Below are positions 2,908 through 24,523 of a stretch of DNA of 37,821 nt, in pieces. Where the stretch lies: positions 1-37,821 of the forward strand of contig JBQLZK010000067.1 in NCBI GenBank assembly GCA_052168235.1, written 5' to 3'. A program made the translations under genes and the position numbers. A model generated the notes under the pieces. It saw only the letters and a program-made list of their open reading frames with translations. It had not been told where the DNA came from and made no database searches. The DNA comes from Thainema sp. Its GTDB lineage: Bacteria; Cyanobacteriota; Cyanobacteriia; Phormidesmidales; Phormidesmidaceae. Every line of letters starts with the position of its first letter. The first letter of the stretch is position 1.

Positions 2908-4107
2908 TTATGCTGTAATGCTATGAGAGACAACAGCGGAATTTAAGATCATAGGCCAATCTTGATTCAGCATGAACTCAAGATGCTTGCGGAATTGCTC
3001 AATGCCAAATTGAGCAATCGCTCTGTTTCTTATCTTCATCCTTTGCTGGTTATCGTTCAGGTGCTGTTGGCGATGCAAGATATCAATCAGCGTTTGAGCA
3101 ATCTCTAAACTGCTATCTGGATTAATCAAATAGCCCTGTTTGCCGTGTTCAAGTGGATCGACTGCTCCGTCACAGTTCCCGGCTAACACAGGTTTGCCAC
3201 ATGCTAAGGCTTCTAAATAAACAATGCCAAAACCTTCCCCTTTACTTGGGAGGGCAAATACATCGCAGAGGTTATAGTGATCGCACAATTCTTCATCTGG
3301 GATGAATCCCGCTAGCGTGACAGCATCTTCAAGCCCTAACTGACAAATTAACTGCTGAATGCGAGGCGTATCATCTCCTTTACCCGCTAAAACATAGTGG
3401 ACATCAGGAATGTATTGGCGAATTGCAGGTAAAGCTCGTAGCACTTGGTCATAGCCTTTATAAGAGTCGAGCTTGCCTAAGCGGCTGACGGTTAAGATGA
3501 CGGGCTGTTGAGGATTTAGTCCATACCGTTTGAGCAAGTAGTCAGGTTTAGGCCCGATTTGGAACTGGGTTGGATCCAGCGTATTGGGCAAGACCGCGAC
3601 CTGTTGCGTTCCCAGAGCTTGTTCTTGTAATAAGCGATCGCGAGTAAATTGACTAACGGCAACGACTTGATCGGCCCGCTGTAATGCTTTTTGCAGGTGA
3701 GGACGCTGTAGATCCCAAACTTCAAGGCCGTGTGCAACCACCCAATAAGGAATACCGGCCATCTGCTTCAACCACTGACAGACCGGGCTGTAGTTGACGT
3801 GAGTTGTGATGATCAACCAAGGCTGCTGTTGAATCCCTTGCTTCAGCGTTTGACCCACCATCAGCATGGTTTGCACCCATCGTGGATAGTCACCAAGGCA
3901 GTGAAATCGGGTCTGGGGCAACAAGTGAAACTGATCATGAATGTGGTGTAGCCGATCATATTTCAAAAAAACATCATATTTAGCATCAGGATATAGCTGC
4001 TGAAGGGACTGCAAGAGAAAAATGGAGTAGACCTGAATTCCACCCTTGAAGCCGAAAATATTAGGAAATAGCAAAAAGAAATGAGGCTTCTGATTCAAAT
4101 TAGTCAT
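2908..4107 (-). CDS. Glycosyltransferase family 4 (GT-B fold)
   Basis: KGGIQ N-terminal loop, AHGLE, VSRL...YKG, and EGFGIVYLEALACGKPV (EX7E signature). Confidence 0.92.
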   Translation of the reverse strand: MTNLNQKPHFFLLFPNIFGFKGGIQVYSIFLLQSLQQLYPDAKYDVFLKYDRLHHIHDQFHLLPQTRFHCLGDYPRWVQTMLMVGQTLKQGIQQQPWLIITTHVNYSPVCQWLKQMAGIPYWVVAHGLEVWDLQRPHLQKALQRADQVVAVSQFTRDRLLQEQALGTQQVAVLPNTLDPTQFQIGPKPDYLLKRYGLNPQQPVILTVSRLGKLDSYKGYDQVLRALPAIRQYIPDVHYVLAGKGDDTPRIQQLICQLGLEDAVTLAGFIPDEELCDHYNLCDVFALPSKGEGFGIVYLEALACGKPVLAGNCDGAVDPLEHGKQGYLINPDSSLEIAQTLIDILHRQQHLNDNQQRMKIRNRAIAQFGIEQFRKHLEFMLNQDWPMILNSAVVSHSITA

Positions 4108-4221: not shown

Positions 4222-4268
4222 TTGGTTCAGAAACTTTGAACCAATAAATGAGCTAAAATTTGGTCTAA
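4222..4268. promoter_or_regulatory. TGAGCYAA-type operator array 1
   Basis: TTGGTTCA(4222)-N7-TGAACCAA(4237), then TGAGCTAA(4249) and TGGTCTAA(4261) at 12-bp period. A -10-like TATACT lies at 4282. Confidence 0.6.
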
Positions 4269-4457
4269 AAACCTATGTAATTATACTTAAATTATTCAAC
4301 TATAGGTATTTAATACAAGTTACAAAAGATGAATTCAAGTAATTGCACTGCATCTACGGTGGCAGCTCAAGAAACCAAGATACAGCAAGACCATACTTAC
4401 TTTTTGCCATATATAGTGTTTCATTACTAAATTGCCTACCACGAGTAAACAATAAAA

Positions 4458-4481
4458 ATTGATTTGGCTATTGATTTGGCT
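4458..4481. repeat. Perfect 12-bp tandem repeat ATTGATTTGGCT x2 upstream of the toxin gene
   Basis: Direct observation at 4458-4469 and 4470-4481. Confidence 0.7.
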
Positions 4482-4702
4482 GCTGCAGTAAGTAAGTTAT
4501 TTAGACGAAGCGAATCTCCGTTTGCTTTAACAATAACCAAATTGATTCATGCAAAAGCGCTATGGCCCTTACCTTATAAGGGTTTTAAGTCGCAAAAGGG
4601 TGGCTTGAGCAATATAGTTATAATTTTGACTTAGAAATCTACGTAGTTTAACGTAGCTAGAAGTTTCTCATCAAAGCTGAATGACTTTTGATCAGGTGCA
4701 AT

Positions 4703-7700
4703 ATGTCTCTTACAGAAGCTAATGGCTCAGGCATTGTTTCATCCCCATCTGGCGATCTAAACTTCATATCTGATAAAAGCTTTACCAATTTAGATCCCTA
4801 TTTACTCAACACCACACAAATTGGAGGACAGCAATCGTCAGGTAGTGGAGAGTCATTACTGCCATTTGATAGCCCAGAGAAGCTGAATCCCGCAGCAGAT
4901 CAGTTATCTATTCTTTTATCCAATCCAGGATATTCAGAGCTAGTAAATAGCGAGTTTACCAGTCAGAATATCGACTTAGTTGATGAAGCGGACACGCCAA
5001 CTGATACTTTAATAGGCCAAGATGAACTGACGGTAGGGTCTGTAGATACGATTGAGCCTTTGCTCTCCAATGTCATCACCTATTCTCCCTATGTTCCTGG
5101 AGTATTTGTAGCTGGAGACAGTGGTCAGGTATCCATTGATTTTTTGTTTGACGGTGGTGGATATTCTAATGGGCAAGTCGCTATCTTCAGCGTAGAAGGA
5201 ATGGATACGCTTGTGCCCGGATCTACCGCTTTTAATCAAGAAGCGGCTTATCGTGCACGCAGTAATTCAGAGCTTGGGCATATTGTAATCAATGATCGTA
5301 AAGAGGGTGCTCGGTTTAGTGGAATTTTAAACAATAACGATCCAGTAGATCGCAACGGTGGGGAATATTTGGGTCCAAAAACTTTCCAGATGGAGCCTGG
5401 CAGCCTTTTTGCTGTGATGCTAGTCCCAAATGGGAAAGTTCAAGATGTTTTGAATAATCCAGCAGTAGAAGGTGCAAAGAAGCCACTTTACTCCATTACA
5501 GATGCTAATCCTGGTGACACGACTCATCTTGGCCAAATGCTAGATGTGGTGGGCGATGGTACTACTTTTACCATGGAAGACCAGCGAACCGACGCTGGCT
5601 CAGATATGGATATGGATGACATCATCTTTAAAGTGAGTGGGGCCATTGGATACGCGCCGTTAATGTCAGACTCCATCAATCCAGATAACGATTGGCGTTA
5701 CAGTCCTCTCGGTCAGGAAATCCTTGCTTACGTGAGCACGAACGATAATCCTGAGAAGCTGATTCCTGATGAACCAGTACGAGATCCCATTCTGCCTGCG
5801 CCACAGATACCGATATCGATAACAGATCAGGGTAGTAATACGCTGACTGAACCAACACCAACTGTGAAGTCTCCGACTCAAGATATCATCGACCAGGTCA
5901 GCAGTAGTGATGCAACAGATACTTATCGGGTCAATGTTGATGAATTGACGGATACCCAGTTTACTGTCCTAACCGGGACAACAAAGGTCAGTATCCTTAA
6001 CTCATCAGGAACTTTACTTAGCTCGCAAACATTAACTAAGGGTAGCCATAGTCTGCTTTTGCCTGCTGGTGTCACCAACGATGCCTTGATCCAGGTTGAT
6101 CAGGTTGGTGATGCAACTGCAACTTATGTGCTGTCAGGTCTTGAGAGTCAGGCTGAGGAGCCTTTTAACATTGACCTGGAATTAGATGAAGGCCTCACAG
6201 CTTCACAGCAAGCAGTGATTAATGCAGCCGCTCAAAGCATTGAGGGTCTTATCCGGCAAGGGCTACCAAGCGCGATCGTAGATGGCAAAATCATTGATGA
6301 TCTCAACGTCAAGTTTAACCTCGGCACTCTGGATGGTGCAGGGGGAACGTTAGCGCAAACCAAGATTGACTTCATGCGCTACGGAATTCTGCTCCCAGCT
6401 CAATCAATTGTGCAGTTTGATCAAGATGACTTTGCGGATTTAGAGCAATCAGGGGAACTGTTCAACGTTGTCCAACACGAGTTGTTGCATGCCCTGGGGT
6501 TTGGCAACCTTTGGGAGGCAAAAGGTCTAGTTGACTACGCTAAAACACCATTCGCCCAGTACAACGGACAATATGCTCTCGCCGCCTTTAAAGAAGCAGG
6601 AGGAGCCACCAACTTTATTTCTCTGGATACAGAAGGCGAGGGCTCGGCTGATCTGCACTGGAATGAAAATCTGTTCCAAGATGAAATCATGACCCGGGAT
6701 TTGAATGCCCAGGGTGGTGATGCGGTAATTAGTCGAGTGACGTTGGCGTCCCTCAGGGATCTGGGCTATGTAGTGGACGCTGAAGGTGTTCCATCTGACT
6801 TGAGCTTGTCCCCAGAGGATATTCCTCAAGACTTCGTCACGGGTTTCACAGAAGAAGAAAAGTTCTCGCTGGCGCAATTAGTTGCTGATGCGGAGACCCA
6901 GGTCAGTAATGGAATTCCTGCGGTTGTGCCCACGGTGGATGCAAATGAGATTGCGCCTACCATTTGGGCTAATGCGGAGCGTTTCGACAAAAATGGCGAA
7001 TACTACGATTGGGAATGGGTCATTATTCAGCCAGGGAACACTATTAGCCAGTACGTCTACGATCGCATGACGGACCATACAGGCAGTGATAATCGCACTC
7101 GTTTACAGAAAGCGAGTGATCCAGCCTACTGGGCCTTCATTAGTGAGCGCAACGGATTTCCTGATCCTAACTGGATTGTAGCCGGTGATCCTGCTTGGCT
7201 TCCGGTTTGGCATCCTAACTATGAGCAGGAGCAAGAAGAAGAACGGAGGCGTCGTGAGGAAGAGCTGAGACAAAGAGAGGAAGAGGAAAGACAGCAACGA
7301 GAGAAACTGGAAGAAGCTTATCGCCAGAGTGGACAGGGCGGTCTAGAGTGGTATGTCGCTAAACCTTTGCCAGACTTCAGTACCTCTGCACCTTACACAA
7401 CAGAGATTCAAGATATTGTCGGCAATCTGGTGCCAGATGACTATTTCCGTTTCACGTTATCTCGTAATGGGCGAGTTACCCTCTATCTAGAGGACTTGCT
7501 AGCAGATGCTGATTTGTATTTGTATGACTCCCGAAATCGCCTGATTGGTAAGTCTGCTCGTGGTGGTCTGACGGACGAAAAGCTCATTCTAGATTTGGCG
7601 GCGGGAACTTACCTAGCTAGAGTCAATAGTCCAGGTGGAGTGACGACGGACTACAAATTGAAAGTGCAGTTTCAGGGACAGCTAACTCGCAGCCAAATGG

Positions 7701-9829
7701 GACCGCCTGTGGGGTGGGTTCCGGGTGTAGGTGTTCCGGGTGGCAGTGGCAGACCAAGTCCAACGTTCAGTGATCCACGAATCGAGCGGATCTTTACAAC
7801 CGCTAGAGATAAGTTTGCTAACGAGCAATGGGCGCAGGCTCAACCTCAGATTGATAGCTTGGAAGCGCAAAAACGGCAGAAGCAGAGAGAACTCGATCAG
7901 CTTTTAGCAGAAGCAATTGCTCAACAAAAGGCGAAGGTTAACGCCGCTCTCGACAATGTCAGAAATGATTTGACAGGAAGAATTTCTGGTATTGCTGATG
8001 GCATTAAGCACAACATCTATTGGGCTGCTGAGAATGGAATTAATGCAGTCAACTGGTTGGTACCTGGTTGGTTGCAGGACAAGCTCGACTGGTTAGGGCT
8101 AGGTGATGGAGTTCGCTCGGCTCAGGACACACTGCGTAATGCTATTCGGGGCGCGCGCGATTGGCTAAACTCACAGATTGATTGGGTTCGCAACCAGATC
8201 AATGGAGCCATCTCTCAATTTATTGAGATGGTTAAGAATGCCTATTTAACAGGAGCAGAGATTAATGCAGCAATTGACGGGGCTGCTAATTGGCTCAGAA
8301 GCAAGACCGATAGCCTGGTCAACTTCCTGAATGGCAAAATTGGTGAATTTAAAGGCTGGATCTTAGGCAAACTGGAGTGGACTAGAAACATCCGTACGCC
8401 GGATTGGGCAAGAAGGCTTGGTGTTCCCGACTGGAATCTGTATGACCATGCGATCGCAGGATTGGTTGATGGTGCTACTAGGGGCGTTCAAAGTGCAATC
8501 AGTGGCACGGGTAATCTCTTTAAGGGAGTACTGGATGTTGCTACGCCTCTAGCCCAAGGTGCTGTTGCGGTCATTGTTGACGCCATCTTTGGCGACCAAA
8601 CTGGCAGACTCTACAACGAAATCAATGGCATTAATCAGAAGATTTCATCTATTAAAGCAGGAGTACAGAAGGCAATCCAGGATCAGACTGCCTTTTACAA
8701 AAATCTATTGGACGGCTTCCTAAATGGTTTAGGGCAAGCCAAGGACTTTATTGTTGGCGCTTTGATGGGTGAGTTTAATAGTCAACCCTCGATCTGGCAA
8801 ACATTGTTAGATGCAGCCATCGGCATGATTCCTATTGTGGGAGAAATTGGCGACGTTCGTGATCTGATTGCATTCACAGCGAAGTTTATTAACGACCCCA
8901 ACGAAATGCAGGACTTCTGGAATTGGGTCGGTGTTGTCGGAGCTGGTATTGGTTTAGTTCCAGTAGTTGGGGGCGCAATTAAAGGGGTTACCAAGCTTGC
9001 CCGGAATGCTGATCTGATTACAGAGATTAGAAAGCTAGGCCCGACTATAGTTAATTCGGTAACTGATTTCGCACGGAAAACCGACTGGGCGGCACTTGGT
9101 AATAAGACTGCCGATTTTTGGGATAATATTCTCTCGACAGTGGAGAATATTACCAATGATCTTATAGAGGCTATGCAGAGATTTAAGAGTCTCATGCCTC
9201 AACTGAAGCTTTCTCCTCAGCCAGCTGGTGGAGTTTTACCTGATGAGGGCTTCTTTGCAAAGGTATTAGACGGAATTGATGAACTAAAAAGGATTAGTCG
9301 AGAGAAGATAGACGAAGCATTTGCGTTTGTTCAAGGTAAGTTTGACGAATTGGCCAGTAGTGGAGCTAAAGTCCTTTCTGGAAGTCCACCTTTCTCTCAG
9401 GACACTATTAGGCGATTTCTAGATGAAACAGAAAGTTTAGGAGAAGGTCATATATATGCAAGACATATTTCAACAGGAGATCTTGTAGCAGACCAGAAAA
9501 CACTTCAAACGCGTTTGGCTGATCGACAAAGAGGCTCATCTGAATACTATAAAGATGAGTTTTCGATGTTTTGGGACAAGCAATCTGCTACGCAAGTGAT
9601 TACACAAGCGATTAATTCTAAGTATTCAGAAATTGAAGCTTTGGTCAAGGCTAATCCTCAAAAGGCTGTGAAAAAAGAATTTTCTGTATCTGTTAATAGT
9701 TCTGATACTGCTTTTGGGATAAATTCCGTTGGCGAATATATTGAGTCTCAACTCACAGATATAAAGCTGGTAATAAAGACACGCGAAGATGGAAGTTGGT
9801 TTGTACTCACGGCTTATCCTATTATTTAG
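4703..9829 (+). CDS. Giant multidomain polymorphic toxin: DUF4114-like, zinc metallopeptidase, LysM-like, PPC, helical stalk, pre-toxin TG-like region, C-terminal RNase A-like (CdiA-CT type) domain
   Basis: MEDQRTDAGSDMDMDDIIF (DUF4114-like); HELLHALGF..HW..EIMT..SRVTLASLRDLGY (leishmanolysin/M8-like); IQPGNTIS..ISERNGFPDPNWIVAG (LysM-like); DYFRF..DADLYLYD..AGTYLARV (PPC); IGMIPIVGEIGD..GLVPVVGGAIKG (PT-TG-like); GHIYARH..WFVLTAYP (RNase A-like toxin). ATG 4703 preferred over TTG 4688. Confidence 0.8.
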   Translation: MSLTEANGSGIVSSPSGDLNFISDKSFTNLDPYLLNTTQIGGQQSSGSGESLLPFDSPEKLNPAADQLSILLSNPGYSELVNSEFTSQNIDLVDEADTPTDTLIGQDELTVGSVDTIEPLLSNVITYSPYVPGVFVAGDSGQVSIDFLFDGGGYSNGQVAIFSVEGMDTLVPGSTAFNQEAAYRARSNSELGHIVINDRKEGARFSGILNNNDPVDRNGGEYLGPKTFQMEPGSLFAVMLVPNGKVQDVLNNPAVEGAKKPLYSITDANPGDTTHLGQMLDVVGDGTTFTMEDQRTDAGSDMDMDDIIFKVSGAIGYAPLMSDSINPDNDWRYSPLGQEILAYVSTNDNPEKLIPDEPVRDPILPAPQIPISITDQGSNTLTEPTPTVKSPTQDIIDQVSSSDATDTYRVNVDELTDTQFTVLTGTTKVSILNSSGTLLSSQTLTKGSHSLLLPAGVTNDALIQVDQVGDATATYVLSGLESQAEEPFNIDLELDEGLTASQQAVINAAAQSIEGLIRQGLPSAIVDGKIIDDLNVKFNLGTLDGAGGTLAQTKIDFMRYGILLPAQSIVQFDQDDFADLEQSGELFNVVQHELLHALGFGNLWEAKGLVDYAKTPFAQYNGQYALAAFKEAGGATNFISLDTEGEGSADLHWNENLFQDEIMTRDLNAQGGDAVISRVTLASLRDLGYVVDAEGVPSDLSLSPEDIPQDFVTGFTEEEKFSLAQLVADAETQVSNGIPAVVPTVDANEIAPTIWANAERFDKNGEYYDWEWVIIQPGNTISQYVYDRMTDHTGSDNRTRLQKASDPAYWAFISERNGFPDPNWIVAGDPAWLPVWHPNYEQEQEEERRRREEELRQREEEERQQREKLEEAYRQSGQGGLEWYVAKPLPDFSTSAPYTTEIQDIVGNLVPDDYFRFTLSRNGRVTLYLEDLLADADLYLYDSRNRLIGKSARGGLTDEKLILDLAAGTYLARVNSPGGVTTDYKLKVQFQGQLTRSQMGPPVGWVPGVGVPGGSGRPSPTFSDPRIERIFTTARDKFANEQWAQAQPQIDSLEAQKRQKQRELDQLLAEAIAQQKAKVNAALDNVRNDLTGRISGIADGIKHNIYWAAENGINAVNWLVPGWLQDKLDWLGLGDGVRSAQDTLRNAIRGARDWLNSQIDWVRNQINGAISQFIEMVKNAYLTGAEINAAIDGAANWLRSKTDSLVNFLNGKIGEFKGWILGKLEWTRNIRTPDWARRLGVPDWNLYDHAIAGLVDGATRGVQSAISGTGNLFKGVLDVATPLAQGAVAVIVDAIFGDQTGRLYNEINGINQKISSIKAGVQKAIQDQTAFYKNLLDGFLNGLGQAKDFIVGALMGEFNSQPSIWQTLLDAAIGMIPIVGEIGDVRDLIAFTAKFINDPNEMQDFWNWVGVVGAGIGLVPVVGGAIKGVTKLARNADLITEIRKLGPTIVNSVTDFARKTDWAALGNKTADFWDNILSTVENITNDLIEAMQRFKSLMPQLKLSPQPAGGVLPDEGFFAKVLDGIDELKRISREKIDEAFAFVQGKFDELASSGAKVLSGSPPFSQDTIRRFLDETESLGEGHIYARHISTGDLVADQKTLQTRLADRQRGSSEYYKDEFSMFWDKQSATQVITQAINSKYSEIEALVKANPQKAVKKEFSVSVNSSDTAFGINSVGEYIESQLTDIKLVIKTREDGSWFVLTAYPII

Positions 9830-9841
9830 ACTTAGAAAAGC

Positions 9842-9897
9842 AGCATATATAGCGTTGGCCATGTGGAAATTGACATTTGGCCAATGCTATATATGCT
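9842..9897 (+). terminator. Long hairpin 3' of the toxin gene (terminator or stabilising stem; could also be an operator)
   Basis: 20-nt arms AGCATATATAGCGTTGGCCA / TGGCCAATGCTATATATGCT. The single mismatch is a G-U wobble on the + strand. Confidence 0.6.
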
Positions 9898-10177
9898 CTC
9901 CTTTCACCCAAACTTACCTGTCAATAAAATCTAATAACTAAAAACCGACTTTTGCTATCGAAAAGACTAACACTCCGGGCAGTTTTTGAAAGTCAACGAG
10001 AAAATGCGGATTGTAGCACTCTTTTGTGGCTATCAAGCGAACAATAAATTCAAGGTTTCAGTGCTTGCCCATAAAATTGACCAGACTATTGAAAGACGTA
10101 TTTATCTGAATAAATACGACTAATGGGAAAAATAGCTGTAGTCCCCCTTTTCGATTTGTGATGTATTTGATAAAGCT

Positions 10178-11350
10178 ATGAGTAAAAAGGTCACAGCTCA
10201 CCTGTATGGAGAATTTCTTGCTTTCAACCGACTCATATTGCTCATAGCAACCCTTGCTCGATTTCCTGGAGTTGGTTGTCTGCATTCTGATGCTTCCATT
10301 CAAGAGAAACAGTCTGCACTAAGAGAAGTTCAGGAATATATGCAGCAAGTGGCTATGAGCCAAGGCATAACTTTACCTGAATACTCCATTCACACGCTGC
10401 GAAAAGATCTGGAGTGCTTAAAGCGCTACGGTATTTTGGAAAAGCGGCGCTATCGATGGGGTTACTATCTAGGCATTGGGGTCATGAATCGCCAGGAGTT
10501 GCAGGTTGCCCTCAACGTATTGGAATCCAAAGCGAAGTATCAACGCGATCCTACCGCGAGTCAGGTTTACCAGTCCGTGACACGCAGAATGGGGGGAGCC
10601 AAGCATCAGTCAGAACTGCTCTACCCTGTGCGAGCGCAGCTGAACAAGTCTATCGTTCACACTGACCCTGATGACCTAATAACGAAGGCGCACTATCGTC
10701 AAACCCTTTTCCATGAAATAGAAACGGTTGAACGTTGCATTCTACAGGGGACAGCACTTCAACTTTGCCGCACCCGTGATCCCTATGGGTCAATGGGGAA
10801 AGGCAGCAAGTTAGTTTATCCACTACAAATTGTTCACTACAACAATGCTTGGTACTTGCTCTACGAGCACTGTGATGATGGTTACCTAGCGATTGAAAGA
10901 TTCGACCGCTTTGATGATAACTGCCAAGTCATTACATCCAATACGCGTAGCATAGCTGATCAAAGAAAAAGTTTAGAAGAAGCTCACAACCTCTTACAAG
11001 CAGGTTGGGGGGTATATCTGGGGCAACCGGCAGAACAAAAACTAGAACGTGATGGTAAACTCGATTTTTTTGAAGTAAAAGCTCGTTTTTTTGGTAATGC
11101 TATACCGTTTATTCTGGAAGGAGATCGCCGTCATCCTACTCAAGAAATTATAGAGGGTCCATATATAGGCAACGGCAATTATGAATATGTTGACTACATT
11201 GTTAGCCTGCCTCCACGAGCTTTCACTGAATTTAGCTACTGGATTTACAAATACATCGGCAAGGTTAAGGTGCTATCTCCACTTGGGCTTGTCAAACAAC
11301 ACCATGATTTACTGCAGCAGGCTCTCAAAATCTACTCATCTGATTTATAG
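10178..11350 (+). CDS. WYL-domain transcriptional regulator (N-terminal wHTH, WYL, WCX)
   Basis: HTLRKDLECLKRYG (wHTH), VYPLQIVHYNNAWYLLY (WYL), ERFDRF, WIYKYIGKVKVLSP (WCX). Confidence 0.9.
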   Translation: MSKKVTAHLYGEFLAFNRLILLIATLARFPGVGCLHSDASIQEKQSALREVQEYMQQVAMSQGITLPEYSIHTLRKDLECLKRYGILEKRRYRWGYYLGIGVMNRQELQVALNVLESKAKYQRDPTASQVYQSVTRRMGGAKHQSELLYPVRAQLNKSIVHTDPDDLITKAHYRQTLFHEIETVERCILQGTALQLCRTRDPYGSMGKGSKLVYPLQIVHYNNAWYLLYEHCDDGYLAIERFDRFDDNCQVITSNTRSIADQRKSLEEAHNLLQAGWGVYLGQPAEQKLERDGKLDFFEVKARFFGNAIPFILEGDRRHPTQEIIEGPYIGNGNYEYVDYIVSLPPRAFTEFSYWIYKYIGKVKVLSPLGLVKQHHDLLQQALKIYSSDL

Positions 11351-11470
11351 CACCTGAAGTATTTCGTTTGCGTTGTCCTATGTAATAAATCTCGTAGGGT
11401 TCTCAAATTCCTGTCTTCATCGTAAGCAGAAAGCATTGGCCTCACAAAACCTAAATCATTTATATGACTT

Positions 11471-11517
11471 TTAGCTCAGATTTTGGCTCAGGATTTGGAT
11501 CACATATGTTGAGCCAA
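11471..11517. promoter_or_regulatory. TGAGCYAA-type operator array 2 (opposite orientation to array 1)
   Basis: TTAGCTCA(11471), TTGGCTCA(11483) and TTGGATCA(11495) at 12-bp period, then N7-TGAGCCAA(11510). Confidence 0.62.
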
Positions 11518-11599
11518 TTCTTTTCTATATATAAGAGAGAATTTTAGTCATAAGCCTCACAATACGTTTGAGGCATTAATCTCATAGCTTGCTAGTAAA

Positions 11600-11741
11600 T
11601 CTCGCGGGGCGCTCAGATTCCTATCCCCGCCGTGAGCGGACGGGACATTACGGAATTTTCCCTTCGGGACGTACTCCTGCGTTACCACTAATATGGCAAG
11701 CCACGGGGAATTAGATCCACAGAGGTTAAATCTAGGGAATC
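11600..11741. other. GC-rich palindromic patch; possibly IS200/IS605-end-derived remnant or structured RNA
   Basis: Several short stems in an AT-rich context (CCCGCCGTGAGCGGACGGG, CCCTTCGGG, TTACCA-N6-TGGCAA, GCAAGCCACGGGG). Resemblance to IS605-family subterminal hairpins is from memory only. Confidence 0.35.
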
Positions 11742-11759
11742 AGTATAAAGTCGGTCTTC

Positions 11760-13172
11760 TTGTGTGAGGAAACGCACATGGTGGGAACTCTTATAGAAAA
11801 GAGTGCAATCTGCCGAAATATGACTCATCAAGAAATACTGCCTAACAGACTCAGGTTATCTGAAGCTGGCCGAAAGCAAATTGATTCAGTATTAAAGAGA
11901 TTAGGCTGGGGAAAACAATCTCCAGCTTGGGCTGCACAGGCAAATGTATCAATATCAACTTTGAAGCGCTTTAGATCTAGACAGTATTTGAAGCTTGAAG
12001 TCTTCCAAAGTATTTGTGATCCACTAGGGCTCTCTTGGAAAGATCTTGCTGAATTAACTACAACAGGTGAAGCAGAGGATTCAGACACTATTTGGGTTGG
12101 CAGACGTGAGATAGTTGATCAGCTTGCTAAAGACATTAAGCAATGTCGGCTGTTGATTGTAACAGGCATTACTGGAATTGGAAAAACTGCCTTAGTAGAT
12201 TATGTGACTAGACCAATCAGGTCTGAATACTCATATATTATAACTTTAAATTTTGAATCTGAACCTTACTTACAATTTGCCGACGCAGCACTGGATATAT
12301 TAAGGAAAATGTCTCAGTTAGAGACAGAAGAAGAGCAAAATCAACCAGAGAAACTGTTAGGTCGATGTATACAGCTATTAGCAGATAATAAGTGTCTAAT
12401 TATTATTGACTCACTAGAGCAAATACTAGAAGGAGATGAGATCACAGGATGGAGCAACTTTTATGATCCTCTCTGGGAAAGTTTTTTTCATCGATTGCTT
12501 GGCAAGGATATCTGTCATAGTAGAGTTATCATTACGACTCAAGACTTACCTCAAGCAGTATGGATATATGGTCAAAGGTATGATAGTAGATTTTCTCATA
12601 TTCCATTGAAAGGTTTGAGTACTAGTGAGCAAGTACTCTTTTTTCAAAAGCATGGATTTGAATTTAGATCCAATAGCTTAGAGCATCAATACTTCGTTCG
12701 TATTGGAGCTGTGTATGAAGGTCATCCTCTAGCACTTCGGGTAGTTTCTGGTGATATTTGGATGAACTTTGATGGTGAAGTTTCAGCTTATTGGCAGCAA
12801 TACCACGAGAAAATTGAAGCTGTCGAAAGGCAGCATGAAGAGCTAGAGATAGATCGATATTCGCGTAATCTTCATATGCTAGTAAGATTACGCATTGATG
12901 AATCCTTATCTCGTCTCAGCCGCGATATTCATGACGCATATTTTCTTGCTTGCTTAGTGTCTGTATATCGAGAACCCTTCACCAATGAATTTCTATTCAA
13001 ATCAATAGAAGAGTTTGGATTTTCGTATGAAAAATACGAAAAATGTTTAAACACTTTACTTGATAGATCTCTTTTAGAAATTACACATGATTGCTATATA
13101 AGGCAGCACAATTTAATTCGTAGTGTAGCTAAGGATCATTTAGAAAATTCTGAAATAGAGGAATTTGACTGA
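11760..13172 (+). CDS. HTH-NB-ARC (STAND) ATPase without a fused sensor domain; true start may be ATG 11778 or 11820
   Basis: Xre-like HTH WAAQANVSISTLKRF..ICDPLGLSW; Walker A GITGIGKT; Walker B LIIIDSLE; GHPLAL (GxP); QHNLIR (MHD-like). Confidence 0.88.
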   Translation: MCEETHMVGTLIEKSAICRNMTHQEILPNRLRLSEAGRKQIDSVLKRLGWGKQSPAWAAQANVSISTLKRFRSRQYLKLEVFQSICDPLGLSWKDLAELTTTGEAEDSDTIWVGRREIVDQLAKDIKQCRLLIVTGITGIGKTALVDYVTRPIRSEYSYIITLNFESEPYLQFADAALDILRKMSQLETEEEQNQPEKLLGRCIQLLADNKCLIIIDSLEQILEGDEITGWSNFYDPLWESFFHRLLGKDICHSRVIITTQDLPQAVWIYGQRYDSRFSHIPLKGLSTSEQVLFFQKHGFEFRSNSLEHQYFVRIGAVYEGHPLALRVVSGDIWMNFDGEVSAYWQQYHEKIEAVERQHEELEIDRYSRNLHMLVRLRIDESLSRLSRDIHDAYFLACLVSVYREPFTNEFLFKSIEEFGFSYEKYEKCLNTLLDRSLLEITHDCYIRQHNLIRSVAKDHLENSEIEEFD

Positions 13173-13174
13173 AT

Positions 13175-14602
13175 ATGGTTAAACATAAGGATAATGAAAC
13201 AGAATCTATTGATTTAATTTTAATTAACTTTATACCAGAAAATTTAAAACACTTAGTTCAGAACTTCAGTCTAGATTTAGGCAAGAAAAGTAGGTATAAA
13301 GTATGCCACTGGGTGGCATTGAAAAGCCATATCAAAGAAATTAATTTTGAGATTTTTAGATATCAAGAAATAAAGAATTTAAATCATATATTTGAAGCAT
13401 GCTATCATGCACGCGCTTTACACAATTGGGATCTTGTACATATATTAATGTGTTTGCCTATCGGGAAGAACAAAACTGAATTTCATCAGCGAATTGGAGA
13501 ACAAGGTGAATATTTTAAGCAAATTGAATTATACAAGACAGCATATAATCAAATTAACACAGATTTTGACTTGATTTGCTTAGATGGTTTAGGTCAGGCT
13601 TATCGTATATCAGGTAACTATGACGAAGCTCTAAAATGTCACAAGAAACAATTAAAGCTTGCTCAAGAAATAGCGGATATAAATCATAAAATGCTCGCTC
13701 ATAGAGGTTTAGGAAAAATCCATTATGATCAACATGCTTATAGACTTTCGCTTGATCACTTTAAAAAGCAGTACAGTTATAGCCAAATATGCAGTGATGT
13801 AGAGCAACAAATAGATGCTTTGTGTAGGATCGGACGAGCTTACATAAACATAAATAGAAATAATCGAGGAATAAAACATATAAGAACTGCTCTAAAATTA
13901 GCAGTTACTTTAGATAGCAAAAGCATTGAAAGCATTGTTTTATCAGAGCTGGCATATGGATATTTTTGGGGAGGCAATCCGGATACAGCAATTGAATATA
14001 CTAAAAATTTAATTAATTATTTATCTCTAGAAGACAATCCTAAAAGCTATTTTAATACTATTCGAAATTTAGGACAAATTTATATCTACAAAAATGATGT
14101 AAATAAAGCAAATTTTTATTTAAATAAAGCATTGGATATTAGCCAAAATCTAAATGATAGATATATGAGATTTATGATTCTCATGGATTTAGCTTTGCTA
14201 CATAACCAGTGCCAACATAGAAGCGATCTGTCAATTCTTTTTGCAGAAGAAGCACTTCTAATTTCTTATCAATTTGGTCTTACAGTATGTATTGCACACT
14301 GCCATTCTTACTTAAGTATCTTTCATGCTGATTTAGGTCAAATAAAACAGGCTCATGAGCATATTCAAAAAGCCACATATTTATATAAAAATAGCTCAGA
14401 GCTAGCTAATCCAGAAGAGCGTTTAATATTACAAGCTTGCTTAGGCAAATTTTATTGGATCAGTGGGCAAAAATTTAAAGGAGTATTAGCTGTGATTTAT
14501 GGACTAATAGTATGTCCCCCATGGAAATATTTGAATAGTCGATGGATTTTACGTGAAATGCTGATAACTGTTGTTCCTTTATTTAATCAGGCAAAAAAAT
14601 AA
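13175..14602 (+). CDS. Tetratricopeptide repeat protein
   Basis: Repeated TPR units such as LDGLGQAYRISGNYDEALKCHKKQLKLAQE and IRNLGQIYIYKNDVNKANFYLNKALDI. Starts 2 nt after the NB-ARC stop. Confidence 0.88.
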   Translation: MVKHKDNETESIDLILINFIPENLKHLVQNFSLDLGKKSRYKVCHWVALKSHIKEINFEIFRYQEIKNLNHIFEACYHARALHNWDLVHILMCLPIGKNKTEFHQRIGEQGEYFKQIELYKTAYNQINTDFDLICLDGLGQAYRISGNYDEALKCHKKQLKLAQEIADINHKMLAHRGLGKIHYDQHAYRLSLDHFKKQYSYSQICSDVEQQIDALCRIGRAYININRNNRGIKHIRTALKLAVTLDSKSIESIVLSELAYGYFWGGNPDTAIEYTKNLINYLSLEDNPKSYFNTIRNLGQIYIYKNDVNKANFYLNKALDISQNLNDRYMRFMILMDLALLHNQCQHRSDLSILFAEEALLISYQFGLTVCIAHCHSYLSIFHADLGQIKQAHEHIQKATYLYKNSSELANPEERLILQACLGKFYWISGQKFKGVLAVIYGLIVCPPWKYLNSRWILREMLITVVPLFNQAKK

Positions 14603-14625
14603 ACCTAACTACGAAGTCTATCATC

Positions 14626-16070
14626 ATGAGACGATCAGTGTTTTTGATGGCTATACTGTATTTTGTGCAAGCAGCTTCTATTGCACCTGGTTTAGCACAT
14701 CTTCCTGTAGCTAAATTTCTTGAGGGAGAACTAAATTTTGATGCTATCCAGCTGTCATGGTTTCAGGAAGTTATCCTTATACCTTGGTTTTTCAAGCCTA
14801 TTTGGGGAATTTTAGCTGATACTGTCCCATTAATGGGATATTTTATCAAGCCATATTTTTTTATTTGCTATGGCTTGATTTTGAGCAGTTTTTTAACTTT
14901 AAGCCAGCTAAATTTTTATACAGTCAATGTCTTACTGGCAGCGAGCTTAATTATTTCAACAAGCATTTCTTTTACAGATGTTTTAACAGATCGCTTGATG
15001 ATCGTTCAAGGAAAACGATTAAACGCGATAAGCTTACTGCAAGCTACTCAGTGGATTGGGTTAGGATTTAGTGCTATGGGAGTATATGTTTGGGGAGGAT
15101 GGCTAGCAGATAACGCTTCTCTTTCAACAGCTTTTCTTCTCAGTACTGTTATTCCTTGCATTGGTATCATAGTTATTTCTAAATTTATAGATGAGCCTCT
15201 TAAGCAAGAGCGAATTTTGCTAAAACAACACTTGAAAAACTTGAAAGAATTTATATTATCCAATCAAGTTTTATCAATTTTCATTTTGGTCATATGTATT
15301 GGAATTACTCCAAAAACTCCTATTTGGACTAGCGGGGGCATTTGAGCAGAAACCTACGGTTTCGTCTGAAACTCTTTCAGGACAGGGATTTCAAAGCTAG
15401 CTGCTTCTCCTGAATATTTGCTGGCTCATGCAACTACTCTTCTGGCTTTAGGGCGTTTCACCATCCATACTCAACGAAAAACCAAGGGGTTCAGAGTATA
15501 ACTAGTAAGCGATATAGTCCAATCGTAGTCCAAAATTTCATAACTGTAGGTTTCTGTTCAAATGCCCCCGCTAGTCCTATTTATTTTCATAGCAAAGAAT
15601 TATCTTTTTCTGATGAAACTATTGGATATTTGAAAGCAGTTGAATTTTTAGGTGTTGGTATAGGGTCTGCTCTTTATCTATGCTTCAGACGATGTTTAAA
15701 TACAAAAAATACGTTGATAAATATTGTTTTGTTTAGTACGCTTAATCCGTTAAGCTTTATCATCTTAGATAGTTCGAATTTGGGCTACTCGTTTGCTTCA
15801 TTCTTTATATCTGGAATTACTCAAATTATTGTATTTTTGGGAATTTCAAACCTTTTTGCTGAAGCAAATTTAAACGGCATTGAAGGTACGGCATATGCTT
15901 TATTTGTATCAGTTCTAAATTTTGTGTTTAGCGTAGGATTTATATTAGGCAGCTATTTATATGATCAAGGCACACATTTTAATTTTTTAGTAGAAATATC
16001 TTCTATATCTACTCTATTGTTTGGTATTCTTGCCTTGATTTTAAGACCTTTAGATTCTTTCGAAGCCTAA
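14626..16070 (+). pseudogene. MFS transporter (BT1 folate/biopterin-like), interrupted by a MITE
   Basis: IPWFFKPIWGILAD, FTDVLTDRLMI and GIEGTAYALF motifs. Removing 15326-15582 joins the two track ORFs in frame (..KTPIYFHSKELSFSDETIGYLKAV..), giving 395 aa. Confidence 0.88.
15326..15577. mobile_element. 252-bp non-autonomous element (MITE) with 32-bp TIRs and 5-bp target-site duplication
   Basis: TIR GGACTAGCGGGGGCATTTGA(G/A)CAGAAACCTAC at 15326-15357 and 15546-15577 (1 mismatch). TATTT duplicated at 15321-15325 and 15578-15582. Confidence 0.95.
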
Positions 16071-16079
16071 AAAATTATT

Positions 16080-16111
16080 TGAGCTAAGTATTGAGCTAAA
16101 TATTGAGCCTA
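16080..16111 (+). promoter_or_regulatory. TGAGCYAA-type operator array 3, upstream of the nfeD-like gene
   Basis: TGAGCTAA(16080), TGAGCTAA(16092) and TGAGCCTA(16104) at 12-bp period, followed by -10-like TAATAT/TAAACT. Confidence 0.65.
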
Positions 16112-16181
16112 TTAGCCATCAGAAATAATATAAACTTTAGAATAATAATCTAACAAGTTGTTTGGTGGAGATTAATAGATT

Positions 16182-16427
16182 ATGTCTTGCTTCACTGTAT
16201 ATTCTCTAGAGTTATTTCCATCTGCTGTCACAGGTCTAGCAGTTCAGCCTATTAGTTTGAAAGTGAGCGGACGTGTGAGCTACCGTGCATCTTCATGGCC
16301 TGCACGACTTTATCAAGTGAAAAAAGACTGTTTAGTCTACTCTGGACAAGCAGTTAAGATTGTTGGCAGAGAGGGAATTACACTTTTGATACAGCCATTG
16401 CAGGCAGATGTTGATCTCAATGAATGA
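16182..16427 (+). CDS. Small NfeD-like (OB-fold) protein
   Basis: GRVSYRASSWPAR..GQAVKIVGREGITLLIQP pattern; GGAG RBS. Confidence 0.8.
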   Translation: MSCFTVYSLELFPSAVTGLAVQPISLKVSGRVSYRASSWPARLYQVKKDCLVYSGQAVKIVGREGITLLIQPLQADVDLNE

Positions 16428-16546: not shown

Positions 16547-17095
16547 CTAAAATGTTAGAGCTTTGATCGCACTTTCCATCTGCTCCTCCCCCACCTCCAG
16601 ATATCGCTGCAACGCCTGCAACGTCTTGTGCCCGGATATCCGCTGAATCACCCGCAGCGGAATCCCCTCGTTGTGCATCTTCGTGAGAGCCGTCCGTCGA
16701 AACGAGTGAGTCGATACTCCTTGCAGTCCAATGAGATCGCAAGCCTCTCGCAAAATCTGATCTGCTGCCCCTCTCGACATGTGACCAAGCCCGTGACGAC
16801 CTGGAAATAGATACCGCTTGTCACACGAATAGTTTGCTAGCCGCGATCGCAACTGGGGACTAACGGGTACCTGCCGCGTCGCCGACTTCCCCTTCGTGTT
16901 GGCTTTGCGAAACGTGATGCTATCCCCCGCAACATCATCCGGCGTCAATGATAGTGCTTCCGATATCCGGCAGCCGGTATAGAGGCAGATACTAAACAAC
17001 GTGCGATCGCGTTCCGATTGAAAGCCATCGCTAAGCAACTGATGAATCTCATCCGGCGTCAAAATTTTTGCTTGACCATGCCCATCCACTTTCAT
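16547..17095 (-). CDS. Small tyrosine recombinase (catalytic domain only), probable plasmid multimer resolvase
   Basis: YTGCRISE (R), TKGK (K), HSFRRT (HxxR), SGHKTLQALQRY (H, Y). Confidence 0.92.
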   Translation of the reverse strand: MKVDGHGQAKILTPDEIHQLLSDGFQSERDRTLFSICLYTGCRISEALSLTPDDVAGDSITFRKANTKGKSATRQVPVSPQLRSRLANYSCDKRYLFPGRHGLGHMSRGAADQILREACDLIGLQGVSTHSFRRTALTKMHNEGIPLRVIQRISGHKTLQALQRYLEVGEEQMESAIKALTF

Positions 17096-17189: not shown

Positions 17190-17409
17190 AAGGGTTCAAA
17201 GTACGTAAATTCGTTGTTTGGAGTCAAAGAGTGGGATTCTAGAACGGCTTATTGAGAACGAGTACCCGCTATTGACAATAATTGTATAAAACCAGGTTAC
17301 ACAACAAATTACACTACGTCGTTTTTTAGATGCTCTTCACCTCAAGATCCTGAAGATGATAGGGGGGCTGGGCTGCTATTTGTTTCTTAATAACCGAGTA
17401 CGTCAAAGT

Positions 17410-17449
17410 ACAATTTCATGTTTTTGCGTACGCAAAAACATGAAATTGT
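17410..17449. repeat. Perfect 40-bp palindrome downstream of the par operon (candidate centromere)
   Basis: ACAATTTCATGTTTTTGCGT|ACGCAAAAACATGAAATTGT; shares the core TTTTGCGTACGCAAAA with 18590-18643. Confidence 0.85.
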
Positions 17450-17463
17450 GAATACTTGAGTTT

Positions 17464-17904
17464 TCAGTTACGCGATTTACTGGATTTACGTTTCTCCAAC
17501 CATTCTGCTAGCAAGGCTTCGACTAAATCGCTGACAGGTCTTGCTGTGCGTTCTCGTCTTTCTCTTCGCTCGGCTGCAAGCTCGTCTTGAACGGCAAGTA
17601 GTAAATCCAATGGAATATAGGCAGAGATCTGGGTATAGTCTGGATCACTGCGGCGGCCTGGGGGACGACCTCGTTTTCGAGCTGGTTTAGTTTGAGCTTG
17701 ATTTTGTTGAGTCGTTTTAGGCTGCTCAGATTCTACTGTTTGCGCAGGGACAGATTCTTCCCATCTCAGATTTTCATCTGTCTCTTCTTCTTTGTTGACT
17801 GACTGATCCTGCTCAATAACGGCTGCATTATCCGGTTCTTCCTGCCGTTGTTCTCGCAGAGCACGCAAGCTAGCAAAGCGGTTTCCTTTTTGAGCAGAGG
17901 ACAT
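17464..17904 (-). CDS. ParA partner, putative centromere-binding protein (type Ib-like, C-terminal RHH-like)
   Basis: Start overlaps the parA stop; disordered N-terminus; RKRGRPPGRRSDPDYTQISAYIP..VSDLVEALLAEWL. Confidence 0.78.
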   Translation of the reverse strand: MSSAQKGNRFASLRALREQRQEEPDNAAVIEQDQSVNKEEETDENLRWEESVPAQTVESEQPKTTQQNQAQTKPARKRGRPPGRRSDPDYTQISAYIPLDLLLAVQDELAAERRERRERTARPVSDLVEALLAEWLEKRKSSKSRN

Positions 17905-18494
17905 TATGCCAGCACCTCCTGTCCTAAAGTTTCATATCCTTCCCAGGCAACAGCAGCTCTTGGATCGGAGTAGTCTTTCACAATCACTCCTGTGAGCGGT
18001 GCTCGTTCAAAGGCAACTAATCGCCGAATCTCTGCATCGAAAACTGGAATTCCTTCTTGAGTGAGCAAGTCTCGGGCTTCTTTGCCTGCTTGACTCGGGG
18101 CAGGTGGCACGATCGTCAGCAGTACTTTGAAGTTGGTCTCCATTTTTTGCAAAACATCGACAGTACGTAGTAAAGCATCTAGATCGAGAGCCTTAGGAGT
18201 TGTTGGCAAAATCAGCAGATCGCAGGAGTCGGCTAGTTCCTCTAAATCTTCTTTAGTAGGCCGAGCTTGTGTGTCGATCACAATATGCTCAAACTGGCGA
18301 ATATATTTGGCCATCTGAACATCCGTGACGACCTTGAACGGGAGCTTATTTGGTGCAGCCCAGGTCATGGCGGAGCGATTTTGGTCTCCGTCTACGAGTA
18401 GCGTTGGTTTGTCTTCATTGAGATAAGCGGCTAGGTGTATGGCTGTCGTCGTTTTGCCCACTCCACCTTTGAAGCTTGCAACAGTCACGATCAT
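17904..18494 (-). CDS. parA: Short Walker-type partition ATPase
   Basis: Deviant Walker A KGGVGKTT, LVDGDQN, IVIDT; 196 aa with no N-terminal HTH (type Ib). Confidence 0.93.
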   Translation of the reverse strand: MIVTVASFKGGVGKTTTAIHLAAYLNEDKPTLLVDGDQNRSAMTWAAPNKLPFKVVTDVQMAKYIRQFEHIVIDTQARPTKEDLEELADSCDLLILPTTPKALDLDALLRTVDVLQKMETNFKVLLTIVPPAPSQAGKEARDLLTQEGIPVFDAEIRRLVAFERAPLTGVIVKDYSDPRAAVAWEGYETLGQEVLA

Positions 18495-18501
18495 AGGTTT
18501 T

Positions 18502-18643
18502 TCATTTCGGGTATACGCTTAATCAAAAATTCAGCTATTCAGCTATTTAAAATATCGAACTTTCACCTGTTTAAGTATTCAATTATGCAAAAAATCAAAA
18601 TTTCGGTATTTTGCGTACGCAAAATACCGAAATTTTGATTTTT
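18502..18643. repeat. Phased 8-bp repeat array ending in a perfect 54-bp palindrome (candidate centromere/operator)
   Basis: About 14 contiguous degenerate octamers nnwwTTCR (e.g. AAAATTCA GCTATTCA GCTATTTA AAATATCG AACTTTCA) at 18502-18613; palindrome 18590-18643 centred on GCGTACGC. Confidence 0.78.
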
Positions 18644-20750: not shown

Positions 20751-22394
20751 ATGCCTTACATGCCTAAGACGAAAGCCAAGGCCCAGAACAACGAGTCACT
20801 GGAGCAGAAGCTCTGGAAGGCGGCGGATAAGCTGCGGAAGAACATCGACGCTGCCGAGTATAAACACATTGTGTTGGGGCTGATCTTCCTGAAGTACATC
20901 TCCGATGCCTTTGAGCTGTTGCACGAGAAGCTGGTGGCCGGAGAGGGAGAATACGAGGGAGCCGATCCGGAAGATCCGGATGAGTACAAGGCAGAGAATG
21001 TCTTTTTTGTGCCGGAGGTGGCGCGGTGGTCGGCATTGCAGGCGCAGGCGAAGCAGCCGACGATCGGGCAGTTGGTGGATGAGGCGATGGAGGCGATCGA
21101 GCAGGCAAACCCCAAGGCGCTTAAGGGGATTTTGCCGAAGGTGTACGGGCAGCAGAAGCTAGACCCGACCTCGCTAGGGGGACTGATCGACATGATCGGT
21201 AGCATCAACCTGGCGAAGGCGAAGGAGGAATCAAACGGGCAGATTAAGCTGGAGACGGAGCCGACGGAACCTCGGACGGAGCCGCGACAGGCGGACTTAT
21301 TGGGGCAGGTGTATGAGTACTTCCTGGGGGAGTTTGCCTTAGCAGAGGGAAAGAAGGGGGGCCAGTTCTACACGCCGGAAAGCGTGGTGCGGGTGCTGGT
21401 GGAGATGCTGGAGCCGTACCAGGGGCGGGTGTTTGACCCGTGCTGTGGGTCAGGGGGCATGTTCGTTCAGAGTGAGAAGTTTGTCAGCCATCACCAGGGG
21501 CGGCTGGATGATATTTCGATTTACGGGCAGGAGAGCAACGAGACCACCTACAAGCTGTGCCGGATGAACCTGGCGATTCGGGGGATTGATGGCTCGAATA
21601 TTCGCTGGAACCCGGAGGGATCGTTTTTGAATGATGCCCACAAGGATTTGAAGGCGGACTTTGTGATCGCGAATCCGCCGTTTAATGACAGCGACTGGGG
21701 CGGCGATCTGCTGCGAAAGGATGGCCGCTGGCAGTATGGGGTGCCGCCGGTGGGCAATGCCAACTTTGGCTGGGTGCAGCACTTCTTGTATCACCTGGCT
21801 CCGACGGGGGCGGCGGGGTTTGTGTTGTCGAATGGGTCGCTGTCGTCGAATACGGGGGGCGAGGGGGAAATTCGTCAGGCGCTGGTGGAGGCGGATTTGG
21901 TGGACTGCATTGTGATGCTGCCGACGCAGTTGTTTTACAACACGGGGATTCCGGCCTGTCTGTGGTTTTTGAGTCGGTATAAGAACGGCAATAAGAACCG
22001 GAACCGCAAGGGGGAGGTGTTGTTTATTGATGCCTCGGAGCTGGGCTATATGGTCAACCGCCGCAATCGGGCGTTTGCGGAGGAGGACATTCAGCAGATT
22101 GCGGGCACGTACCACGAGTGGAAGCGAGACGGTGGCGACTATGAAGACATCAAGGGGTTTTGTAAGTCGGCGACGCTGGCGGAGATTAAGAAGCACAATT
22201 TTGTGCTGACGCCGGGGCGCTATGTGGGCATTCCGGATGAGGAGGATGACGGAATACCGTTTGAGGACAAGATGAGTGATTTGGTGATGACGCTGGGAGA
22301 ACAGATGGCAGAGAGTCGCCAGTTGGATGAGGAAATCAAGCGACAATTACTCAAAGTAGGCTTTGTTGTCAGTGATGAGTTACCAAATGAATAA
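20751..22394 (+). CDS. hsdM: Type I R-M methyltransferase subunit (start 20751 or 20760)
   Basis: [23 protein letters not shown] (motif I), ANPPFN (motif IV). Confidence 0.96.
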
Positions 22395-22425
22395 AGGGTG
22401 CTAGATGATATACGGAGGTGGAACC

Positions 22426-23090: not shown

Positions 23091-23092
23091 TC

Positions 23093-24486: not shown

Positions 24487-24523
24487 TCGTTTTTGGCTTT
24501 AAATACTCTCTATCTGCACTTTC

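Follow-up and report, generated by a model that had tools for sequence, protein, structure and literature searches.

Which protein, if any, reads the short repeats that recur at three places on one cyanobacterial contig, and to what end? The stretch in question, hereafter the window, is the entire contig C67 (37,821 bp) of the 7.54-Mb draft genome (G000) of a Thainema sp., and because an FtsK-like gene that leaves one contig end resumes at the other, it is probably a circular plasmid. Three intergenic arrays of the word TGAGCYAA, here called sites 1, 2 and 3 (Table 1), lie between the genes for a GT4 glycosyltransferase and a toxin-like protein, upstream of a gene for an NTPase of the STAND type with a predicted N-terminal helix-turn-helix (HTH), and at the far end of the operon that this gene begins. 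Our analysis leads us to favor, at a probability of about 0.7, the reading that the three arrays are multi-copy operators of the plasmid's own HTH-STAND protein, which would work together with the TPR protein encoded by the next gene. A first-pass annotation, made from the letters alone, had proposed that either this protein or a neighboring WYL protein is a signal-activated regulator of the toxin, GT and NfeD genes. The HTH-STAND protein emerges as the better candidate of the two, because repeat clusters of the same word precede homologous genes and because changes in the word go together with changes at one residue of the helix predicted to recognize DNA.

Three repeat arrays on one contig

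Re-reading the sequence, we find TGAGCYAA-like 8-mers in triplets at an exact 12-bp period at all three sites and, common to sites 1 and 2, an inverted fourth copy across a 7-bp spacer, just as the first-pass annotation had described them. The exact word accounts for 6 of the 11 array copies, the remaining five carrying one or two mismatches. The motif proves to be enriched both against shuffled sequence in the window and against the whole genome. Within the window the 8-mer occurs 13 times against 3.56 expected and the two-unit 12-bp pattern (up to three mismatches) nine times against 1.25 expected, and in neither case did any of 100 shuffles reach the observed count. Three-unit arrays (up to four mismatches in total) number eight in the 7.54-Mb genome, and three of these fall on this contig, which makes up 0.5% of it. 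A composite operator pattern of 35 bp, consisting of the palindrome plus the next unit with 23 specified positions and derived from sites 1 and 2 themselves, has no match in the genome with fewer than three mismatches outside those two sites. Chance does not explain the recurrence of the array. By blastn, the intergenic region of site 1 has no match in PLSDB, and neither the window nor the surroundings of site 2 gave a relevant Rfam match.

Arrays accompany HTH-STAND genes

Modules with the gene order of the window, STAND-TPR-BT1, are found on contig C41 of the same genome and, as an orthologue, on contig C92 of genome G001, each with a STAND protein 58% identical to that of the window. In both, a 12-bp array precedes the STAND gene and another follows BT1 in inverted orientation. 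The units of these arrays are TGACCTA-like where the window has TGAGCTA-like ones. BT1 is intact in both (392 aa), and the downstream arrays precede an unrelated GNAT gene. In genome G059 (contig C81), an array that was found by its motif alone lies 60-90 bp upstream of a 787-aa HTH-STAND-TPR gene.

A profile of the conserved domain, the N-terminal 80 residues of the HTH-STAND proteins, matches 222 of 401 genomes of the class, in proteins of about 450-1300 aa. More than 500 profile matches were reported, and about 100 non-duplicate loci were examined, pooled from a first set of 30, a further 30 from the profile search and 60 extra ones, with eight duplicates removed. These loci differ in residue X of a helix motif T-L-X-R-F. 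Where X is lysine (TLKRF, K-type; 31 loci), 16 loci have two or more TGAGCY words in the 160 nt that precede the start, and the upstream sequences together hold 56 such words, compared with 6 in a 160-nt control taken inside the genes. Where X is asparagine (TLNRF, N-type; 20 loci), no locus has two TGAGCY words (Fisher p = 4.4e-5 against the K-type), whereas at least two TGAGRC words are found at 5 of the 20, as against 1 of the 31 K-type loci (p = 0.029); since related genomes are not independent, both tests overstate significance and their p-values are indicative only. The N-type loci carry TGAGRCAA in place of TGAGCY, with TGAGACAA and TGAGGCAA as their top words. A subfamily reading ALSTVSNF carries CCTGAGTTC repeats at a 12-bp period, and the TLRRF-type loci yielded no clear motif, TGAGTCAA occurring five times over 24 loci.

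The words also keep a position. In the 400 nt upstream of K-type genes, 41 of 53 minus-strand words fall between -120 and -41; they lie mainly on the strand opposite the gene, with gene-strand copies nearer to it, and the typical upstream sequence consists of tandem TTGGCTCA units, often with an inverted TGAGCCAA closer to the gene, at a spacing that at one locus (L160) is the 7 bp of the window. The K-type loci with arrays come from at least 10 different families of the class, and the word is kept upstream of homologues that share no more than 30-40% identity, its spacing and copy number differing among them. The phased repeats that the first-pass annotation had proposed to look for near homologous genes are thus present as repeats, but not as an exact phase: most members space them by 9-12 or 23 bp, and strict 12-bp phasing is confined to the subfamily of the window, C41, G001 and G027.

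Similar repeats were met elsewhere. A loose scan of the Thainema genome (at least three words with at most one mismatch within 60 bp) returned 145 clusters, mostly noise. Two chromosomal sites hold two to three TTGGCTCA-like units at a spacing of 10-12 bp, both of them intergenic: C130:5561-5590, with TTGGCTCA twice and a TGACTCA, just upstream of a 99-aa open reading frame (ORF), and C47:54444-54475, with TTGGCTCA-like units just upstream of a LapA/GGDEF gene. Only these two stand out as possible extra targets of a TLKRF-type regulator. In other genomes of the class, long 12-bp tandem arrays of related units stand at G060:C1:593042-593390 (unit TGGGCTAATTNN, at least 11 overlapping three-unit matches) and at G042:C1:1214243-1214334 (alternating TGAGTTAAGTAT and TGAGCCTAGTAT).

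The predicted DNA-binding head

In the STAND protein Pfam recognizes NB-ARC (26.5 bits, cut-off 23.5), AAA_16 (41.3, cut-off 32.6) and nSTAND1 (29.2, cut-off 27.1), and its likely start is ATG 11820. An AlphaFold2 model of residues 1-93 counted from this codon, built with 70 sequences, has a mean predicted local distance difference test score (pLDDT) of 83.4, and the 10-residue blocks across residues 11-70 average 90-94. The model has helices at residues 35-41 and 45-52. The latter, helix 3, reads ISTLKRFR and contains the covarying residue, K49. The top Foldseek matches in the PDB are all Cro/C1-XRE HTH DNA binders, namely ClgR, the CapH N-terminal domain, SinR, HipB, C.BclI and the 434 repressor, with E-values of 5e-3 to 4e-2 and template modeling (TM) scores of 0.48-0.73 by target length; a PDB sequence search with the HTH profile gave nothing below E 0.2. 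On the strength of the model, a Cro/C1-type HTH on the same polypeptide as the NTPase is plausible.

The TPR repeats (TPR_12 65.7 bits, TPR_2 64 bits) lie on a separate polypeptide from the STAND protein. The two ORFs are 2 nt apart both in the window and in G001, and separate adjacent ORFs are also seen in G027 (junctions at 13172/13175 in the window, 7331/7334 in L096 and 5502/5578 in L190). The TPR part of the C41 paralogue is itself divided between ORFs of 164 and 312 aa, whereas NTPase and TPR are fused in more distant relatives (G059).

A candidate mechanism

In the mechanism that we favor, which would resemble those of AfsR and MalT, each 8-bp word would be contacted by a single Cro/C1-type HTH whose helix 3 (ISTLKRFR) enters the major groove, and the 12-bp direct units together with the one inverted unit would align several NTPase protomers. 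Occupancy of the array, and hence promoter activity, would be set by the nucleotide- or ligand-driven oligomeric state of the NB-ARC and TPR parts. Site 2 would in this way provide autoregulation of the STAND-TPR-BT1 operon. Its layout relative to the STAND gene is the usual one of the family, with direct units on the opposite strand and the inverted unit nearest the gene, and we presume that it is an autoregulatory operator. Site 1 would extend control to the divergent GT4/toxin promoter region. Read toward the GT4 gene it has the same layout as site 2 toward the STAND gene, which is not so when it is read toward the toxin gene; site 1 is oriented like a GT4 operator, and through it the protein may control GT4 and toxin. 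Site 3, inverted at the 3' end of the operon, could serve as a second anchor of the same module, in looping, as a boundary or in the control of downstream genes. Because it mirrors the arrays that follow BT1 in C41 and G001, site 3 appears to belong to the STAND module, and it is better seen as a 3' anchor or boundary of STAND-TPR-BT1 than as a promoter element of the nfeD-like gene, although it may also act on that gene. As an analogy, the first-pass annotation's picture of the HTH-NB-ARC protein as an NLR-like sensor wired to transcription is a fair one, whether the protein would act as an activator or as a repressor.

Several points weigh against this reading. Sites 1 and 3 are not adjacent to the STAND gene and are tied to its product solely by identity of motif, and site 3 has no inverted unit. 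A consensus promoter scan finds a promoter-like site at none of the three arrays; the -10-like hexamers of the first-pass annotation can be made out by eye (TATACT at 4283-4288, TAATAT at 16126-16131), but none passes that scan. Foldseek gives no match at E <= 0.001, and the Pfam HTH_26 match to the STAND N-terminus (E 0.005, 17.5 bits) falls below the cut-off of 22. In the family survey, to the dependence among related genomes must be added that the loci were classed by a regular expression on residue X, and that 15 of the 60 extra loci were excluded as unmatched by it and a few more for short upstream sequence. Two TGAGCY words within 160 nt are missing from 15 of the 31 K-type loci, among them the window, C41 and G001, whose arrays sit at about -250 to -350. 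Finally, one relative (L083/L111) has its repeats within the spacer of a perfect TTGACA-16-TATAAT promoter, which is divergent and points away from the STAND gene. The regulatory logic may therefore differ between members of the family, and this arrangement would suggest repression at that locus.

Other readings of the arrays

The arrays could instead serve another protein of the plasmid. The WYL-like protein would have site 2 as its downstream operator and sites 1 and 3 as further targets: 120 bp separate the end of its gene from site 2, its sequence includes a winged-HTH-like stretch at the N-terminus and a NAWYLL motif, and WYL regulators are ligand-sensing repressors of defense islands. 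This alternative, also offered by the first-pass annotation, finds no support among the relatives of either protein. WYL homologues occur in 81 of 251 genomes, and at 24 other loci that were examined over about 4 kb each, with homologues 42-49% identical, none has a cluster of at least three TGAGCYAA-like words. Conversely, arrays lie upstream of the STAND genes in C41, G059 and G134, where Pfam finds no WYL among the scanned neighbors; in C41 that scan places no WYL gene upstream of STAND, and the same holds in G001, as judged from the ORF list alone. Moreover, the motif covaries with the STAND HTH and with no feature of the WYL protein, which we consider a very unlikely binder. A somewhat different case is made by the partition system. 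Here the arrays would be operators or centromere-like sites bound by the plasmid's partition protein, the 146-aa ORF after ParA; the model is omega of pSM19035, a protein that binds arrays of short repeats at several promoters on a plasmid. Three dispersed arrays of direct and inverted short repeats would suit such a protein, whose C-terminus looks by eye like a ribbon-helix-helix and which belongs to no Pfam or NCBIfam family, and a TTCAGCTA TTCAGCTA pair (18530-18545) upstream of parA is one base off TTGAGCTA. Yet where homologues of the 146-aa protein are found (29 of 301 genomes), the repeats flanking par mostly have an 8-bp period (GATTAATC, TTCAAATA and TTGAGTAT types), and the 12-bp array present at one of the 29 homologous par loci is unrelated in sequence. 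The par operon of the window is itself flanked by two long palindromes (17400-17445 and 18595-18638) centered on TTTGCGTACGCAAA (GCGTACGC), and these palindromes and the TTCAGCTA pair are the likely centromere sites; the TGAGCYAA array nearest to the end of the ParB-like gene is 1.35 kb away. On chromosomes TGAGCY goes with HTH-STAND genes, and a Pfam scan of the neighbors of the C41, G059 and G134 STAND loci found no par genes. We hold a partition role to be quite unlikely. Some of the 8-bp-period repeats at homologous par loci elsewhere stand beside GTACGC. Replication iterons would be direct repeats clustered at one origin beside a rep gene. The three sites are spread over 12 kb, and neither Pfam nor NCBIfam identifies a rep gene in the window; the presence of TGAGCYAA-type motifs upstream of STAND genes on megabase contigs (for example G183:C1 and G027:C1) speaks against a role in replication.

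A second group of readings denies the arrays a primarily regulatory role. They might be the ends or recombination sites of mobile modules, used by the HTH-STAND protein or a recombinase, with regulation secondary. The cassettes would be toxin-WYL between sites 1 and 2 and STAND-TPR-BT1 between sites 2 and 3, each enclosed by an inverted pair of arrays, and the latter cassette is bracketed by inverted arrays in C41 and G001 as well; in addition, GC content drops to 0.31-0.35 across 13-16 kb, and an integrase fragment lies 440 bp from site 3. Against such modules speaks that in most family members only an upstream cluster was seen, whose strand and distance from the start codon are fixed, a constraint typical of promoters (downstream arrays were sought in few loci). 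The cargo varies, being a histidine kinase in G027 and a CyanoTRADD-associated membrane protein in G134, and the arrays showed neither a transposase nor a target duplication. Mobile modules strike us as unlikely, though such a role may come in addition. Simpler still, the arrays might have no function and be tandem repeats of a minisatellite-like type that these genomes commonly contain: the Thainema genome has 166 period-12 tandem arrays (75% unit identity), and a mismatch-tolerant scan matched 25 of 61 related genomes, many of the matches lying, by our own reading, in coding repeats of four residues. Against this, the same 8-mer turns up between genes three times on a single 37.8-kb contig, with a palindromic extension common to sites 1 and 2, and the word is retained upstream of homologues that are 30-40% identical and covaries with a protein helix. 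We disfavor this explanation and regard it as highly improbable. Operators of the HTH-STAND protein remain our preferred reading of the three arrays.

Genes and other elements around the arrays

The first-pass annotation placed the arrays correctly among their neighboring genes, but two of its labels, WYL and NfeD, correspond to matches below threshold (Table 1). Site 1 lies in the divergent GT4/toxin intergenic region, 420 bp upstream of the listed start of the toxin gene. Site 2 is 243 bp upstream of TTG 11760 and 303 bp upstream of ATG 11820; relative to the latter codon it is placed at -310 to -349, farther away than in most of the family. Site 3 begins 10 bp past the stop of the BT1 remnant and ends 70 bp before the NfeD-like ORF.

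Table 1. Repeat arrays and principal genes of the window. Sequence units are given with their positions.
Feature	Position	Strand	Description
GT4 glycosyltransferase	2908-4107	-	Candidate target of site 1; inverted copy of site 1 lies 115 bp upstream of the ATG
Site 1	4222-4268	+	Inverted TTGGTTCA (4222-4229), 7 bp, TGAACCAA (4237), 4 bp, TGAGCTAA (4249), 4 bp, TGGTCTAA (4261)
1713-aa polymorphic-toxin-like protein	4688-9829	+	DUF4114, PPC, C-terminal CdiA-CT RNase A-like domain; candidate target of site 1
390-aa WYL-like protein	10178-11350	+	Sub-threshold matches to WYL (Pfam E 0.013) and WCX
Site 2	11471-11517	-	TTGGCTCA (11517-11510), 7 bp, TGATCCAA (11502-11495), TGAGCCAA (11490-11483), TGAGCTAA (11478-11471)
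STAND (NB-ARC/AAA_16/nSTAND1) NTPase	11760-13172	+	N-terminal Cro/C1-like HTH (predicted), about 11820-12060
TPR protein	13175-14602	+	Presumed sensor part; separate ORF directly after the STAND gene
BT1/MFS transporter, split	14626-16070	+	Two ORFs, 14626-15345 and 15630-16070
Site 3	16080-16111	+	Direct units TGAGCTAA (16080), TGAGCTAA (16092), TGAGCCTA (16104)
81-aa NfeD-like ORF	16182-16427	+	Sub-threshold match to NfeD C-terminal domain (24.7 bits, cut-off 29.1); downstream of site 3
Integrase fragment	16547-17095	-	
146-aa ORF after ParA	17464-17904	-	C-terminus ribbon-helix-helix by eye; no Pfam/NCBIfam family
ParA	17904-18494	-	

The unusual distance of site 2 from the STAND gene is due in part to a GC-rich element of 119 nt (11594-11712) that sits between them. 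This element has two further copies in the genome at 91% identity (C44:56278-56396 and C9:148687-148805), and its first 48 nt resemble positions 11383-11430 (73%), on the other side of site 2. It has no match in Rfam, and its folding is no better than that of shuffled sequences (z = 0.25). The BT1 gene of the window is split by a small insertion with terminal inverted repeats of 36 nt (15326-15361 and 15542-15577), which are 94% complementary with 180 nt between the arms; blastn-short finds four matches in the genome, including the insertion itself. Farther along, at 20751-28673, lies a type I restriction-modification system with HsdM, HsdS and HsdR, in which an 86-aa ORF and a PIN-domain ORF stand between hsdM and hsdS. 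Among public read sets, no RNA run is listed as matching; two DNA runs contain shares of 0.27 and 0.05 of the sampled words.

Implications

Research on bacterial STAND or NLR-like ATPases now centers on their role as sensors of phage that bring about cell death. To our knowledge, few STANDs (MalT, AfsR, GutR) are understood as transcription factors. The pairing of gene and operator described here would supply a predicted DNA site for an HTH-STAND domain that is present in 222 of 401 sampled genomes, together with a recognition rule of one residue and one base that is open to test by a single swap. For the plasmid, it offers a concrete hypothesis that links a toxin/glycosyltransferase locus to a sensor, and it draws attention to the conserved array at the 3' end of the STAND-TPR-transporter module, a feature still in need of explanation.

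These findings lead us to a broader proposal, which we put forward tentatively and rate well below even odds. In it, proteins with an N-terminal Cro/C1 HTH, an NB-ARC NTPase and TPR or other repeats would form a large family of transcription factors of NLR-like type, with members in over half of the sampled genomes of the class. Each member would mark its own promoter with a tandem array of an 8-bp word whose fifth base is set by a single residue of the recognition helix, lysine going with C and asparagine with a purine. On the plasmid, the operator of one member would have spread both to the toxin/GT locus and to the distal end of that member's operon, and a ligand-triggered oligomer would switch an island of competition or defense genes on or off, possibly by looping between inverted arrays.

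Comparison with known systems

The architecture of the HTH-STAND protein recalls AfsR, the "large SARP" of Streptomyces, in which a DNA-binding head, a STAND/NOD NTPase and TPR repeats follow one another in the same order, and the TPR protein of the window has a partial match to the NCBIfam AfsR model (E 6.6e-13, far below the cut-off). In a study of AfsR (PMC10936776), its protomers are described as lying side by side, each contacting the first 8 bp of an 11-bp direct repeat that overlaps promoter elements. The two systems differ in the head, an OmpR-type winged helix with BTAD in AfsR but a modeled Cro/C1-XRE HTH here; Pfam finds no OmpR-type or BTAD match in the STAND protein or in its N-terminal 92 residues at E-values up to 10. 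They also differ in the operator, which has two 11-bp direct repeats in AfsR but here a 12-bp unit (9-12 bp in relatives) in three to five copies with inverted copies, and in the TPR part, which is a separate ORF in the window's subfamily.

MalT, the regulator of the maltose regulon in E. coli, is a signal-dependent STAND NTPase that multimerizes and binds several asymmetric promoter boxes. The TPR protein of the window and its relatives have weak matches to TPR_MalT. However, MalT carries a LuxR-type HTH at its C-terminus, whereas the HTH predicted here is N-terminal and of the Cro/C1 type, and Pfam finds no GerE or LuxR match in the STAND protein; furthermore, the sensor is here on a separate polypeptide, and autoregulatory arrays beside the regulator gene would be the hallmark of the system. 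Because the DNA-binding domain differs in type and position from those of both regulators, the HTH-STAND protein is a member of neither the AfsR nor the MalT family.

HTH domains have been noted on STAND/AP-ATPase conflict systems of multicellular bacteria. A survey by Kaur, Burroughs, Iyer and Aravind (2020) notes that HTH domains without enzymatic function can take the effector position in NTPase conflict systems, and it describes bacterial STANDs as studied mainly as transcription regulators (PMC7159879). MalT is cited as a STAND transcription factor there and in a second source (PMC7159879, PMC13581612). For proteins of this kind, the passages of the survey that were consulted name no operator, motif or autoregulatory site (PMC7159879). 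A search of the open-access literature, with supplements and subscription journals outside its scope, returned no paper on operators, a motif or autoregulatory arrays of an HTH-STAND family. In the distribution of its sites the plasmid resembles a third system, that of the omega repressor and the type Ib partition proteins, which has dispersed arrays of short direct and inverted repeats on one plasmid. There the binder is a ribbon-helix-helix protein, whereas here it would be an HTH-STAND protein; by analogy, several dispersed arrays on a single plasmid could join the genes beside them into one circuit.

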